This document shows, one piece after another, positions 3,498-63,860 of a stretch of 64,000 bases of DNA. The DNA is from a phage. Both the position numbers and the translations under genes were made by a program. The notes beneath the pieces were generated by a model. The model did no database searches. It had not been told where the DNA came from and was given only the letters and a program-made list of their open reading frames with translations. The stretch's first letter is position 1; the number at the start of each line of letters is the position of its first letter. Location of the stretch: the sequence record PZ386974.1; one strand, given 5' to 3'.

Positions 3498-3944
3498 TTA
3501 GTAACTCTGCAGAATGAATTTGAAATTATCTGCCAGAAGACGGTTCATTTCAGTGAGTGTTTGATATTCTGATGTATGGTTGCGAGTGAATGCCAGAGCC
3601 AATTGTCCTTTACCATAACCAGTAGTCAGTGGTTTCATGTTCTTAGCTGCAACAAAGATTACATCATATTCAATATTGTTAGTGCCCATGGTACGGGCTA
3701 GTTGCGAACGGCCTTGACGAATGTGAGAAAGAATTGCATCCAACCCTTGTTTAGAACGTTGACGTCCTACAAAGAATCGTGCTGCTACTTGTCGCCAATC
3801 AGATGAACCTTTAACAAAGAAGTAAAAACCTTCGCGAGAACGAAACTCTTTAGAAACTTCAGAACCGTATTCGCCATTACGAACTACTGCAACAACTTCA
3901 CCACCAACTGCCAGAAGGTCTTTACGAGTTAAATATTTGGACAT
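3498..3944 (-). CDS. ndd: possible Ndd nucleoid-disruption protein (148 aa)
   Basis: Size and position (clockwise of 52) match T4 ndd; ATG with GAGGAA SD; identity not verified by alignment. Confidence 0.4.
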
Positions 3945-4221: not shown

Positions 4222-4249
4222 TTTGTGTTCCTCGTGTTTCAGTAGGACT

Positions 4250-4279
4250 ACTATACCATAATCCTACCTTGATGTAAAC
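4250..4279 (-). promoter_or_regulatory. early-type promoter cassette (GTTTAC-N18-TATAGT), IR TAGGA.TA
   Basis: Upstream of 66-aa ORF. Confidence 0.45.
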
Positions 4280-4735: not shown

Positions 4736-4761
4736 GATGTTATCCTCTTTTAGATAGGACT

Positions 4762-4791
4762 ACTATATCATAGTCCTACTTAGTTGTAAAC
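4762..4791 (-). promoter_or_regulatory. early-type promoter cassette (GTTTAC-N18-TATAGT), IR TAGGACTA/TAGTCCTA
   Basis: Upstream of 87-aa ORF. Confidence 0.5.
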
Positions 4792-8795: not shown

Positions 8796-8996
8796 TCACA
8801 AGTTACGTTTAAAAATTTCTGCTACTTCAAGAAGTTCTTCTTTAGTAGCTGTATCGGTTTGTATTTTATATCGAATTTCTTTAAAGCGTTCTTTAAAGGA
8901 CTCTGCTGACTCGATATCAAAAAATCTTTGGATAAGCCGGAATTCCCGGAGCACTGCTTTATCAAAAAGTTCCAAGTCCACGTTATATGTTCTCAT
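8796..8996 (-). CDS. hypothetical protein (66 aa; rIIA.1 position)
   Basis: ATG start; positional equivalent of T4 rIIA.1. Confidence 0.45.
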   Translation of the reverse strand: MRTYNVDLELFDKAVLREFRLIQRFFDIESAESFKERFKEIRYKIQTDTATKEELLEVAEIFKRNL

Positions 8997-9088
8997 AATA
9001 TTCTCTTCAGTAGATTCCTAGGGCACTATTACTAAAGACCATATAATCTATCATCTTATGTGTAATAGTGCCTCAGGCGATTCAGGAT

Positions 9089-10189
9089 TTACGCTGTGAA
9101 GATTTTATCCCACATCGCAACAACTGCATCTCGATTATACTTCTTCCATACTGCTTCAGCACGTTTAACTCGAGCTTCGTATGTGTCAGTGAATTCTAAT
9201 ACAGCTTTTGTGTAAAGCGCAACTACTTCTTTCTTAGGAGTAGAGGAATCAATTTCTACACGCACAGTATCTGGGTCATATTCGAATGTCGCGTGCGGAT
9301 AATCCTTAAAAACTAACTGGATTACAGGGACACCTTTAGAGATGGCTTCAATAGAACTATTCTCTACCGTACCTGTGTCAGGACACGTATTAATAAGTGC
9401 TTTAGCTGTTTTAAGACGTTCCATAATTTCACTGTGTGGAGCATCAATAATAACAGGATATTTAGCCGGTGGTGCCCATTTACTAGGACAGTATCCTACA
9501 CCATTTTCGCCTAGTGCTTTAATCGCTTCAAGAGCAACATCAGTACGACGCATTTTAGTGTCATAACGTTGTGCACTAATAATCAGATCAGTCGCCGGAA
9601 GAACTTCAGGTTTCTCATTCAAACAAATAACCGGATAATCTTCGGCTTCAAACAACGGATTTGCTCGCCAATAATCATAATCAATTTTGTCAGTCAGACC
9701 CGAAGTCATATAACAATATTTACGTTCAAATTCACGGAAGGCTTTAGTAGGAGCATAACTCTTACCACCATTCTTATGAATTTGAATAGTCTGGTCCCAA
9801 ATTTGAACAATGCCACGAGATACCGGTTCAAATGGTGTTGCCATAAAATTCTTATGAACTTTAGAGAGACCTGCGTCTTTAATTGCCTGAACGGTTAGTT
9901 TGGTCGGTTCCATTGTAACAACGAAATCATACTCATTAATGCCGGCTAGTTCAACAATCTTACGAGCCATAGTATAACTCATACCTAGACTGAATTTAGT
10001 CAGATGACCAACAGGATGATGATTAACTTTCCAATCACCAAATGTGTCATTATCAAAACCGATATAATCAATATCGGCACCGATGGACACAAGATATTTC
10101 AACACATTTAAATGTACTGCTTCAAGACCACCTTGTACACGTTCTGGGTTAAATGGGACTGCGCGAGATGGGATAAACATAACTTTCAT
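9089..10189 (-). CDS. GT-B fold glycosyltransferase, candidate hmC-DNA pentosyl(arabinosyl)transferase
   Basis: 366 aa; C-terminal segment TGTVENSSIEAISKGVPVI resembles GT4-type donor-binding motif; sits where T4 has gene 60/mobA. Confidence 0.6.
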   Translation of the reverse strand: MKVMFIPSRAVPFNPERVQGGLEAVHLNVLKYLVSIGADIDYIGFDNDTFGDWKVNHHPVGHLTKFSLGMSYTMARKIVELAGINEYDFVVTMEPTKLTVQAIKDAGLSKVHKNFMATPFEPVSRGIVQIWDQTIQIHKNGGKSYAPTKAFREFERKYCYMTSGLTDKIDYDYWRANPLFEAEDYPVICLNEKPEVLPATDLIISAQRYDTKMRRTDVALEAIKALGENGVGYCPSKWAPPAKYPVIIDAPHSEIMERLKTAKALINTCPDTGTVENSSIEAISKGVPVIQLVFKDYPHATFEYDPDTVRVEIDSSTPKKEVVALYTKAVLEFTDTYEARVKRAEAVWKKYNRDAVVAMWDKIFTA

Positions 10190-10200
10190 AATTAAGCCTT

Positions 10201-10233
10201 ATTAAAATTAAAATGAAGCTCCCGAAGGAGCTT
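10201..10233 (-). terminator. intrinsic terminator, UUCG-tetraloop hairpin AAGCTCC/GGAGCTT plus U-rich tail
   Basis: Overlaps gene 39 stop codon. Confidence 0.5.
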
Positions 10234-13939: not shown

Positions 13940-13965
13940 ATTATTCTCCTCTGGTTGATAGGTCT

Positions 13966-13994
13966 ATAATACCAAAACCAGAGGAGAAGTAAAC
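13966..13994 (-). promoter_or_regulatory. early-type promoter cassette (GTTTAC-N17-TATTAT AGACCTATCA)
   Basis: Upstream of 174-aa ORF. Confidence 0.5.
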
Positions 13995-25333: not shown

Positions 25334-25362
25334 TTTAACTCCTTAGTTGATTTGATAGGACT

Positions 25363-25392
25363 ACTATACTATAGTCCATCTATAATGTAAAC
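25363..25392 (-). promoter_or_regulatory. early-type promoter cassette (GTTTAC-N18-TATAGT)
   Basis: Upstream of sp. Confidence 0.5.
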
Positions 25393-26335: not shown

Positions 26336-26649
26336 ATTTCCTCACAGAATGCCCATTCAGCATGATAAACTGTAGCACCTTTAGTATCATTCATTTGAAC
26401 TACATCTACCGGAGAAATTACTCGATAGAGACGTGGTTCACCTCCATAAGAGCGTGCTGCTCGTCCTGCATAAATCTTTGCTAAACCGATATCTTCAGTA
26501 AAGAATACACGATCCAAGTTTTTCTTACGTCCAGTTTCAGACAGAACTCCTGTTTCCTCAGGAGGACAAAGCATGTTTTCGATGTTAGCTGAACTACTTG
26601 AACCGTGATAAAAAATCTTAAATTCTGCTTTACAATCGATGGTTTTCAT
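26332..26649 (-). CDS. hypothetical protein (105 aa)
   Basis: ATG; ATGA-coupled to dmd. Confidence 0.5.
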   Translation of the reverse strand: MKTIDCKAEFKIFYHGSSSSANIENMLCPPEETGVLSETGRKKNLDRVFFTEDIGLAKIYAGRAARSYGGEPRLYRVISPVDVVQMNDTKGATVYHAEWAFCEEI

Positions 26650-26675
26650 TTTGTTCTCCAGTAGTTGATAGGTCT

Positions 26676-26704
26676 ATAATAACACAACTACTGGAGAAGT
26701 AAAC
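26676..26704 (-). promoter_or_regulatory. early-type promoter cassette (GTTTAC-N17-TATTAT AGACCTATCA)
   Basis: Upstream of 105-aa ORF. Confidence 0.5.
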
Positions 26705-54521: not shown

Positions 54522-54822
54522 AATAATCTCTTCCCATTTCCATATCAATTAATTCATTTATTGAAGGTTCATCATAACACGTTTCTTCGTCGTTGTAAAA
54601 TGTTTCGACGTCTGGCTCGACCGTCTCCCATCGAGCCGAATACCACGGTTTAACCGCGGAGCTTATTGAGCTCTTCATAATCAATCCAGGATTCTAGTCC
54701 GGATGGTAAAGCCGATTCAATTTCCCAAAGAAGCTCTTCAATTTTTTGAAGACGATCTAATTCTTCAACAGGAATAGTAACCATTGATGGAGCTCTTGCT
54801 GCACTAATATCGTAAATCATAT

Positions 54823-59965: not shown

Positions 59966-60102
59966 AACATATCCTCTTTGATTTGTACATCATTATTTTA
60001 AATATTTCTATGCCCTCAGTAGGTTCCTAGTGTCCTTCTTTGAGGTAAGCCATATGATTATTCATCTTTATGGCTTTTGTTACCTCAGAACTTCCTATAA
60101 GC

Positions 60103-61083
60103 TTATTTCAGTAAAGTTACTTCGGAGATTTCCTCCCAACCATCTTTATCAGTTGAAATAAAATCTGCTACATAAAGAGCCGTACGTAATGATACATTGC
60201 GAAGACGAGATACGTTAGCCTTCATCCAGGACAATGCTTTGTACGTTTCAGCATCAGTCAGACCACGTTTCTGCATCATGTCAGTAGATAATATTACGTC
60301 TTCAACTCGAACCATAATCTCTTCATTAGAGTGTACTCCAAGGTCGAGATACACTGAACGAGATACTAAAGCTTGAAGGTGTGGGGCAAGTTTCGAACCA
60401 CGTTCTAACTCTTTATCGATATCAACGTTTGTAATGAAAACGATAGTACCTTCAAACTCAAATTCTTTATCAATACCCTTATCATCAAGATAAGATGACG
60501 CAGTGCTCCAACAAACTTTGCGTTTATCTCCGGTATCTAATGCTGCTTTAAGAAGGTTCAAGATATCCATATCAGAGAATACATCAACATCGTCGATTAA
60601 GAGAACGCTGTCTGCATCACGGTTGAGCCAAAGTTGTTCGTAAAGGCCGATACCAGAGATTTTACCATTAATGCTTTTGTATTTGATGAAACCATTATCA
60701 TTAGCATTATTAAGTGCTTTATCCAGAGAATACGTCTTACCAATACCGGCTGCACCTGAAATGATGAGTGAACGAATTTTGCCATCGATAATGCCATTCG
60801 TCATCATGTTCATTACTTTAAAGCGTTTGTTGATACGAGTTTTCATATCTTCAGTGCTTTCAACAACTGCAACTGGTGATGTCTCAACTCCTTCCATTAC
60901 GATGTCTGATTTGAAGACCCATACTCCACGTTCAGAACCATCAATCATAACGAAAATTTTACCATCACCTAAGTGGGAACATTCAGGATTAAGCTTTGCT
61001 GGGAACCATGTCTTTGTGGCGACATAAGAACCAGAGATTTCGTTATTACGATAGATACCTTTTTTGATTTGAACGTTGAACAT
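60103..61083 (-). CDS. P-loop ATPase (AAA-like), 326 aa
   Basis: Walker A GAAGIGKT and Walker B LLIDDVD; start set to ATG at 61083 with GGAGAA SD. Confidence 0.6.
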   Translation of the reverse strand: MFNVQIKKGIYRNNEISGSYVATKTWFPAKLNPECSHLGDGKIFVMIDGSERGVWVFKSDIVMEGVETSPVAVVESTEDMKTRINKRFKVMNMMTNGIIDGKIRSLIISGAAGIGKTYSLDKALNNANDNGFIKYKSINGKISGIGLYEQLWLNRDADSVLLIDDVDVFSDMDILNLLKAALDTGDKRKVCWSTASSYLDDKGIDKEFEFEGTIVFITNVDIDKELERGSKLAPHLQALVSRSVYLDLGVHSNEEIMVRVEDVILSTDMMQKRGLTDAETYKALSWMKANVSRLRNVSLRTALYVADFISTDKDGWEEISEVTLLK

Positions 61084-61121
61084 TTTATTCTCCAATTTAC
61101 TCATTTCGTTTCGATAGGTCT

Positions 61122-61201: not shown

Positions 61202-61483
61202 TTACTTATCGCACTTAGCAACATAATTAGGCATATCACAGAATACGGAGCGAGTAACTACTCGACCCTTTGACCATGCTTCAGTTGCTTGTCCGGCAGT
61301 GCTATTAATATAGCTTGATTTGATATTCTCAATACCCTGAGAATGTGATGCATTTACCGAACCGTTGGAAGGCCCAGAAGACTGGTTACCACCAGCTCCT
61401 GCACTACCGCTGGCTGCACCCGTGGTAGCACCAACAGAGAACGCCATCATTACTGCGAATAAACCAATTACTAATTTTTTCAT
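61202..61483 (-). CDS. secreted Gly/Ser-rich protein (93 aa)
   Basis: N-terminal signal peptide MKKLVIGLFAVMMAFSVGA; two C-terminal Cys. Confidence 0.5.
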   Translation of the reverse strand: MKKLVIGLFAVMMAFSVGATTGAASGSAGAGGNQSSGPSNGSVNASHSQGIENIKSSYINSTAGQATEAWSKGRVVTRSVFCDMPNYVAKCDK

Positions 61484-63802: not shown

Positions 63803-63830
63803 TTTGTTCTCCGTTCGTTTTGATAGGACT

Positions 63831-63860
63831 ACTATAACATAGTCCTATCAAGTTGTAAAC
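63831..63860 (-). promoter_or_regulatory. early-type promoter cassette (GTTTAC-N18-TATAGT), IR TAGGACTA/TAGTCCTA
   Basis: Upstream of small ORF chain and 176-aa ORF. Confidence 0.45.

Follow-up and report, generated by a model that had tools for sequence, protein, structure and literature searches.

A predicted intercistronic mRNA hairpin between a candidate arabinosyltransferase gene and rIIA.1 in Mosigvirus phages

An 11-bp perfect inverted repeat in the spacer upstream of rIIA.1 of a T-even phage is predicted to form the core of a 61-base hairpin (9017-9077) in the minus-strand RNA, which is the sense RNA of the surrounding genes. We tentatively favour, as the best explanation of this structure, an intercistronic mRNA stem-loop that would stabilize or process the message, either by defining and protecting the 3' end of the transcript of the upstream gene, a homologue of RB69ORF003c (hereafter ORF003c), or by acting as a processing site. 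Most likely, then, the hairpin sets an mRNA boundary and is an element of an ordinary kind rather than a promoter.

The window, by which we mean the whole 64,000-nucleotide stretch of DNA analysed, belongs to Mosigvirus (the RB69 group of T-even phages), as 155 records match it at 90-99.3% identity and all but one of these at 95% or above. In the hairpin region the window coordinate equals the RB69 coordinate plus 6569. All genes around the hairpin lie on the minus strand, and the gene context given in the original prediction, namely a glycosyltransferase gene followed by an ORF at the rIIA.1 position, is correct. The product of ORF003c is a published candidate for the transferase of arabinosyl-hydroxymethylcytosine, a DNA modification that sets RB69-like phages apart (PMC6024577). 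The features of the region and of a related element elsewhere in the window are as follows.

9089-10189, minus strand: upstream gene, the ORF003c homologue
9089..9091, minus strand: stop codon (TAA) of the ORF003c homologue; the hairpin begins 11 nt downstream
8997-9088 (RB69 2428-2519): 92-nt spacer that contains the hairpin
9017..9077, minus strand: whole predicted hairpin; from base to tip, an outer helix of 4 bp (CCUG / UAGG), a 1x1 mismatch, the 11-bp core stem, a 4x2 internal loop, a helix of 5 bp, a second 1x1 mismatch, a helix of 3 bp and the 5-nt loop
9062..9072, minus strand: 5' arm of the core stem in the sense RNA, GGCACUAUUAC
9035..9057, minus strand: predicted apical sub-hairpin, within the loop as first reported, AAGAU-G-AUA-GAUUA-UAU-G-GUCUU
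9022..9032, minus strand: 3' arm of the core stem in the sense RNA, GUAAUAGUGCC, with a weak alignment to the -10 region of a promoter cassette (G-TATAGT-AGTCC)
9005..9021, minus strand: 3' flank, CTAGGAATCTACTGAAG, whose first bases close the outer helix and which is common to the second element
8994..8996, minus strand: rIIA.1 start codon, 20 nt past the end of the hairpin
8796-8996, minus strand: downstream gene rIIA.1, followed by rIIA and rIIB
60014..60088, minus strand: related, promoter-less hairpin between nrdC.10 (60103-61104) and a 95-codon nrdC.9-like ORF

Reading of the sequence and a repeat finder both confirmed the letters of the repeat, in which GGCACTATTAC (9022-9032) pairs perfectly with GTAATAGTGCC (9062-9072), in plus-strand letters, the arms being 29 nt apart. 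It is in fact larger than first noted: the finder extended the arms to 9017-9032 and 9062-9077 (16 nt, 88% complementarity), and the 29-nt 'loop' is itself mostly paired, with AAGAU opposite GUCUU and AUA opposite UAU on either side of a G.G mismatch and a 5-nt apical loop at the tip. This sub-hairpin includes the block CATAAGATGATAGATTATATGG, which is common to the second element, and an alternative apical register (CAUA/UAUG plus GAU/AUU), possible in both copies, is less favourable by 6.6 kcal/mol. On the minus strand 9017-9077 folds as a 23-bp hairpin of -28.5 kcal/mol (z -5.8 relative to 200 shuffles), while the corresponding values are -23.7 kcal/mol (z -4.3) for the plus strand and -11.6 kcal/mol for single-stranded DNA. 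The greater strength of the sense-strand fold is helped by two G.U pairs in the sense RNA that become A.C mismatches on the other strand. The MFE and centroid structures of a 241-nt context both retained the hairpin, and base-pair probabilities were 0.988-1.0 for the 11-bp stem. The core stem begins at +17 from the ORF003c stop codon, and the stem ends at 9017, so that the rIIA.1 Shine–Dalgarno sequence GAAGAG (9003-9008), which the end of the 3' flank overlaps, falls outside it; this sequence and the AUG are unpaired in the centroid structure. A 15-codon ORF can be read within the hairpin (MIDYMVFSNSALGIY); it lacks a ribosome-binding site, and the codon at which it would start falls within the fold.

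The window contains six perfect inverted repeats of at least 11 bp with loops of 3-40 nt, compared to 0.84 +/- 0.84 (maximum 3) in 200 dinucleotide shuffles. One 11-bp repeat is only moderately unlikely by this measure, as it is the class that is enriched, about seven-fold, and any single member could be due to chance. Three of the other five (13944, 26654 and 63820) sit within early-promoter cassettes. In terms of stability, the hairpin region was the ninth most stable distinct region among 25,570 overlapping 76-nt windows covering both strands, and no hairpin was more stable in the minus-strand intergenic gaps of at least 35 nt, which number 50 and total 4,559 nt (7% of the window). Several equally stable structures were found within coding regions in the 76-nt scan. 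The two most stable 76-nt folds of the window were 61366-61441 and 54586-54661 on the minus strand (-34.2 and -31.9 kcal/mol). A search of the whole window against Rfam 15 gave no match at the gathering score and, at E<=10, only generic microRNA-precursor matches of 14-15 bits.

We examined promoter signals using a profile built from 13 early promoters of the window (GTTTAC-N17/18-TAT(A/T)(A/G)T, followed by the leader AG(A/T)CCTATCAA). This profile recovered further promoters in the window, several of which are published RB69 early-promoter predictions after the coordinate shift, and detected the T4 promoter upstream of rIIA.1 with 13.1 bits. At 9017-9077 it had no match on either strand (E<=1000, filters off), a sigma-70 consensus scan of the spacer found no site on either strand, and the MotA box (TGCTT) and the late motif TATAAATA were absent from both strands of the spacer. 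In the published predictions for RB69, 2428-2519 is free of early promoters, middle promoters and terminators; the closest entries are the terminator at 3649-3662, Pm:156 and, upstream of gene 39, Pm:5538 (PMC1524935 supplements). A functional early, middle or late promoter was rejected on the basis of these scans, published predictions and missing motifs. Even so, promoters can be drawn in the loop, from a perfect plus-strand TATAAT (9042-9047) or from TATTAC-N18-TATGGT or ATGATA-N18-AATAGT on the minus strand, which are weak sigma-70 consensus matches (8/12). Such a promoter is highly improbable, since none of the above approaches places a site here, the plus-strand TATAAT has neither a -35 element nor a TG extension, and RB69 alters the key last T of the minus-strand AATAGT.

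The original prediction had pointed to a plus-strand TATAATCTATCA in the loop that resembled the -10 of a promoter cassette in reverse orientation, and had offered a cruciform or regulator site, an RNA-processing hairpin or the remnant of an inverted cassette as explanations. The 12-mer is present at 9042-9053; its frequency, however, is at chance level, with 14 matches at up to two mismatches in the window against 13.2 expected. Together with the lack of a profile match on either strand, this speaks against an inverted remnant, and the sole cassette-like similarity found, a weak one through the 3' arm and 3' flank, runs in the same direction as the genes. Of the three options the RNA hairpin fits best, given the strand-biased fold, the placement and the sequence constraint described below, whereas the inverted-cassette remnant had to be abandoned.

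Inverted repeats are also carried by many of the early-promoter cassettes on the minus strand, with the 5' arm in the -35/-10 spacer and the 3' arm formed by the transcribed leader (13944-13988, 26649-26703, 63820-63851, 25346-25392, 4743-4791 and 4229-4279). In two of these, 13944-13988 and 26649-26703, the 3' arm includes a GGAG ribosome-binding site. Read-through RNA from such cassettes could form the hairpin and hide this site, while RNA started at the promoter itself could not.

The position of the hairpin immediately after a stop codon raises the alternative that it is a transcription pause, an attenuator or a non-canonical terminator that reduces read-through from ORF003c into rIIA.1-rIIA, such that hairpin control would have replaced the promoter control of T4. 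The related hairpin at 60014-60088 is annotated in phage SA79RD as a 'rho-independent terminator (WebGeSTer)', although it has no U-run, and rIIA has its own candidate middle promoter within rIIA.1, marked in one genome record. We nevertheless consider this alternative unlikely. The stem is not followed by a U-tract (the tail is CUAGGAAUCUACUG), a terminator scan detected only the hairpin at 10216-10233 and none at the spacer, and TransTerm called no terminator at the hairpin in RB69. The clear terminator-like hairpins of this genome are also different, having short G+C-rich stems, usually a UUCG tetraloop and mostly a T-rich tail. An example is 10216-10233 in the promoter-less gap between gene 39 and ORF003c, where AAGCUCC-UUCG-GGAGCUU is followed by a U-rich tail. 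By comparison the hairpin studied here is atypical, with a long stem and a structured loop. Although a stable stem-loop follows the gene, a canonical intrinsic terminator was rejected because no U-rich tract comes directly after the stem.

A search for the spacer among phages showed that it is present in all 155 Mosigvirus records found, with at least 96.7% identity, so the repeat is conserved in relatives. Outside Mosigvirus the 92-nt spacer gave only short chance matches at E<=10. None of 5,426 E. coli genomes had a match, and a mobile or host-derived sequence was ruled out on this ground. At the syntenic position in T4, after gene 60, lies a 54-nt spacer whose early promoter is of canonical form, GTTTAC-N18-TATAAT, and has TGG ahead of the -10. 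Representatives of Dhakavirus, Gaprivervirus, Jiaodavirus, Gelderlandvirus, Kanagawavirus and Winklervirus, six further genera of T-even phages, have a small ORF that overlaps the rIIA.1 start and no spacer at all, and the idea of a hairpin conserved upstream of rIIA.1 in other genera was rejected accordingly. A hairpin travelling with the glycosyltransferase gene was likewise rejected, because in Acinetobacter phages the 43%-identical homologues have different genomic surroundings, and the hairpin that comes after them is a short one with a UUCG tetraloop. The absence of the hairpin from the T4, other-genera and Acinetobacter-homologue sites indicates that it is specific to the Mosigvirus ORF003c/rIIA.1 junction.

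Searches of metagenomes and IMG/VR with the ORF003c protein found only relatives with at least 97% identity. Scans of IMG/VR detected the apical motif in 21 stretches and the flank motif in 41, with the whole element matched only in Mosigvirus contigs. Identical arms (GGCACTATTAC / GTAATAGTGCC) around a 10-nt loop occur between genes in two related IMG/VR Microviridae contigs (2657-2688 and 2351-2382); this match is probably a coincidence, as a rough estimate gives about 0.2-2 expected by chance. The records of phages JK45 and F2 are filed under Tequatrovirus, whereas their sequence in the regions compared is Mosigvirus-like (97-99% identity). Shigella phage JK45 (NC_054940.1, 2428-3022) has a 503-bp tandem duplication that takes in the final 411 nt of ORF003c, runs through the entire hairpin-bearing spacer and stops 16 nt into rIIA.1, creating a chimeric ORF (MRTYNGKWAPP...). 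This duplication could be real or an assembly artefact.

Variation was analysed in 19-20 sequences picked for having the most spacer differences, 17 of which had full flanks and were used for site counts. About 8-9 spacer positions vary. Three changes are at unpaired positions, namely C->A in the 5' flank outside the hairpin (many sequences), G->A in the apical loop (many sequences) and G->A in the bulge (JS09). Five changes affect paired positions. Two of these keep or improve pairing: C->U in the core stem of EP32B keeps a G.U pair, and CU->UC at the base of the core stem and outer helix of AV109 and AV114 converts A.C and G.U into A-U and G-C. Two others, U->C in the upper stem of moha and U->C in the core stem of RB69, produce A.C mismatches, and G->C in three sequences breaks the terminal pair. 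This split matches the neutral expectation, and the single transitions therefore say nothing for or against the structure. Compensatory double-sided substitutions were absent among the approximately 20 sequences, in which within-genus divergence is low, and variability did not differ between paired and unpaired positions (p 0.39).

Despite this, the spacer is under sequence constraint. Among the 17 sequences, 8/92 spacer sites and 4/51 sites of the core (9022-9072) were segregating, versus 100/393 at third codon positions of the flanking genes (Fisher p 0.0002 and 0.002, respectively) and 22/786 at first and second codon positions. Thus, the spacer is about three times less variable than the neighbouring third positions and varies at around the average rate of coding sites, an estimate that is conservative because the sequences were selected for the most spacer differences. 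AV114, the most divergent relative examined, has 52 mismatches in 1,286 flanking nucleotides (4%), and its sole spacer difference is the dinucleotide change CT->TC (window 9020-9021), also seen in AV109, which results in a perfect 16-bp stem of -34.0 kcal/mol. This event looks like a templated quasi-palindrome correction. In AV109 and AV114 the change also abolishes an in-frame TAG, and because of this loss rIIA.1 is annotated there as 231 nt rather than 201 nt, with a GTG start inside the stem.

These patterns bear on another alternative, that the hairpin is a relic with no current function. Here the spacer would derive from a decayed early-promoter cassette like that of T4, the palindrome would have arisen or been perfected by templated mutation, as the CT->TC change resembles, and the element would persist because the genus is young. 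In line with this, T4 keeps a promoter at the syntenic spot that the Mosigvirus profile detects, single stem substitutions behave neutrally, and the 3' half of the spacer can be aligned, in the direction of the genes, to the 25392 cassette (score 18, reached in 1/2000 shuffles). The alignment places the 3' arm, G-TAATAGT-GCC, against the -10 region G-TATAGT-AGTCC, and CCCTAGGAATCTACTGAAGAG against the leader CCTATCAAATCAACTAAGGAG. This similarity, however, is marginal after correction for 49 comparisons and lies at about the 95th percentile of spacer pairs, and the promoter profile has no match at the hairpin. A relic is also hard to reconcile with the low variability of the spacer, and leaves unexplained why a second, diverged copy has a strong stem of different sequence. 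We regard a functionless relic as possible but doubtful. With respect to origin only, and not present function, the marginal alignment and the syntenic T4 promoter, taken together, suggest descent of the spacer from a promoter cassette whose -35 and -10 elements have been lost. Among all spacer pairs, the highest alignment score (72) belongs to the near-duplicate spacers 1644-1828 and 1323-1427 on the minus strand, each of which has a promoter-profile match.

The survey of intergenic gaps brought up one other long hairpin with no promoter, at 60014-60088. This second copy has three blocks in common with the first, and their order agrees: CTGAGG at the 5' side, an apical block (CATAAGATGATAGATTATATGG versus CATAAAGATGAATAATCATATGG) and a 3' flank (CTAGGAATCTACTGAAG versus CTAGGAACCTACTGAGG). 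Its main stem differs in sequence (TGAGGTAA / TTACCTCA) and begins at +16 from the nrdC.10 stop codon, compared to +17 in the first element. A BLAST comparison of the two elements within the window gave an E of 0.012, and their local alignment score of 20.5 was not reached in 2,000 shuffles (9.1 +/- 1.5 for shuffled sequences). The two spacers were reciprocal best matches among all 50 gaps; their score is only at about the 96th percentile of all spacer pairs, as promoter cassettes are common to many spacers. Hence the two elements are likely, though not certainly, to be related. A two-copy profile found no third copy in the window or in RB69 57.4-157.4 kb, and IMG/VR held no full-length copy outside Mosigvirus contigs. 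RB69 does not have the second element, carrying instead a different nrdC.9 allele and no spacer. In phage TH12 a 5-nt deletion (window 60075-60079) removes exactly the CAAAA bulge of the second element and leaves both helices intact.

The locations of the two copies could also indicate a DNA-level element, such as a cruciform, a binding site of a dimeric protein, or a short junction sequence, common to both copies, that favours the exchange of gene modules in the manner of promoter-early stem-loop (PeSL) cassettes. Both copies lie at points where T-even genomes differ: ORF003c stands in for small ORFs of other genera, or for gene 60 plus a promoter in T4, and the nrdC.10-side element is missing from RB69 along with the change of nrdC.9 allele. 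Furthermore, the palindrome is perfect over 16 bp in AV109 and AV114. Set against this, the fold relies on G.U pairs and loses strength as DNA, the palindrome is imperfect at its centre, a feature unfavourable to cruciform extrusion, and two copies in a genome of about 164 kb are too few for a shuffling system. The JK45 duplication, the only rearrangement seen, has its junction 16 nt inside rIIA.1 and not at the hairpin, and neither site is syntenic with a T4 replication origin. No observation points specifically to a cruciform or protein-binding site, and action at the DNA level is distinctly improbable. A link to T4 replication origins was rejected, oriA being near soc and oriC near rI.-1. 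A miniature transposable element was also rejected; direct repeats (CTGAGG / CTGAAG) flank the region, but the 3' arm is 13 nt away from the repeat, just two copies are present and the E. coli genomes searched gave no match.

A more speculative proposal is that 9017-9077 and 60014-60088 represent an undescribed family of promoter-less Mosigvirus junction elements, in which the apical loop and flanks would be recognized by a phage or host factor that binds or cuts RNA, and which travelled with, or helped to install, gene modules such as the arabinosyltransferase gene. The consensus of the two elements reads CUGAGG ... CAUAAGAUG-N4-AUYAUAUGG ... CUAGGAAYCUACUGARG. We hold this proposal with little confidence.

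Returning to the intercistronic mRNA stem-loop, we infer that the hairpin is transcribed as part of a long 39-ORF003c-rIIA.1-rIIA message, because no early or middle promoter is predicted from the middle promoter upstream of gene 39 as far as rIIA.1, and that it acts on this RNA. The 23-bp irregular helix would begin at a sufficient distance from the ORF003c stop codon (core stem at +17) to remain folded during ribosome termination, and would end before the rIIA.1 ribosome-binding site, leaving that site single-stranded. It may block 3'-to-5' exonucleases, or may be cut by a double-strand-specific endonuclease or a neighbouring single-strand-specific one (of the RNase III or RNase E type). In either case the arabinosyltransferase message would gain a defined, stable 3' end and a lifetime uncoupled from that of the rIIA.1-rIIA segment; the hairpin may also slow read-through.

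Several observations argue for this stem-loop reading, including the stability of the sense-strand fold and its survival in longer context, the top rank among gaps, the genus-wide presence and the constraint, the change in AV114 and AV109 that perfects the stem, the second copy with a strong but different stem, the loss of only the bulge in TH12, and the RB69 predictions that place neither promoter nor terminator at 2428-2519. Arguing against it are the lack of double-sided substitutions, the neutral-like changes, the equal variability of paired and unpaired positions, the equally stable folds inside coding regions and the fact that T-even phages are not known to depend on RNase III for mRNA processing. 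No transcript data or transcriptome literature were found for RB69 or any other Mosigvirus, and a 2026 preprint describes RNA sequencing of AV110 as still to come.

The hairpin directly follows the proposed arabinosyl-hydroxymethylcytosine gene, at the place where T4 has its rIIA.1 early promoter. If our reading is correct, the expression of rIIA.1 and rIIA in RB69-like phages would depend on read-through from the transferase gene and would be controlled through the RNA instead of a dedicated early promoter, which would be a modest point on how T-even regulation is rewired when a gene module is swapped. Intercistronic hairpins are familiar from the operons of phages and bacteria; the present one is unmarked in every record whose features were viewed, and its description is useful for annotating the 155 Mosigvirus genomes.

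Among known systems, the PeSL cassettes of T4-type phages consist of a functional early promoter after a stem-loop and are present in many copies (PMC2839356, PMC4122927), the promoter being of the TTTACW-N17-TAYWAT type and beside the stem-loop (PMC4122927). The elements described here resemble PeSLs in being intergenic stem-loops, with sequence common to the copies, at the borders of variable gene modules, but differ in that neither the profile nor the consensus scan finds a promoter beside the stem-loop and in having only two copies. In T4 gene e, the ribosome-binding site is hidden by a hairpin that contains a promoter (review PMC3014915). As in this type, and in the window cassettes 13944-13988 and 26649-26703, our inverted repeat lies in a spacer upstream of a gene and would form only on read-through RNA; unlike in this type, the Shine–Dalgarno sequence (9003-9008) and AUG are outside the stem and the hairpin contains no promoter. 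Hairpins of this type, whose internal promoter gives shorter transcripts without the 5' arm, are also found at T4 soc, 49 and I-TevI. The T4 early promoter upstream of rIIA.1 occupies the same position as the hairpin, directly upstream of the rIIA.1 ribosome-binding site, except that T4 has GTTTAC-N18-TATAAT and no long hairpin whereas Mosigvirus has the hairpin and no promoter. Like T-even intrinsic terminators such as 10216-10233, the hairpin is just past a stop codon; those terminators, however, have G+C-rich stems of 5-9 bp, usually a UUCG tetraloop and a U-run, in contrast to the long A+U-rich composite stem without a U-run seen here. Finally, the RNase III hairpins of the early genes of phage T7 (R0.3 to R1.3) are intercistronic, and their cleavage leaves a 3' hairpin that stabilizes the upstream message. 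Processing of T-even mRNA is mainly attributed to RNase E and RegB rather than to RNase III. There is no sequence similarity to the T7 sites; like them, our predicted hairpin is intercistronic, is about 60 nt long, has two helical segments around an internal loop and lacks a U-tract. With 23 bp, where an RNase III site calls for about two turns of irregular double-stranded RNA (at least 20 bp), small internal loops and a location between a stop codon and a ribosome-binding site, the predicted structure is of the form expected for such a site.
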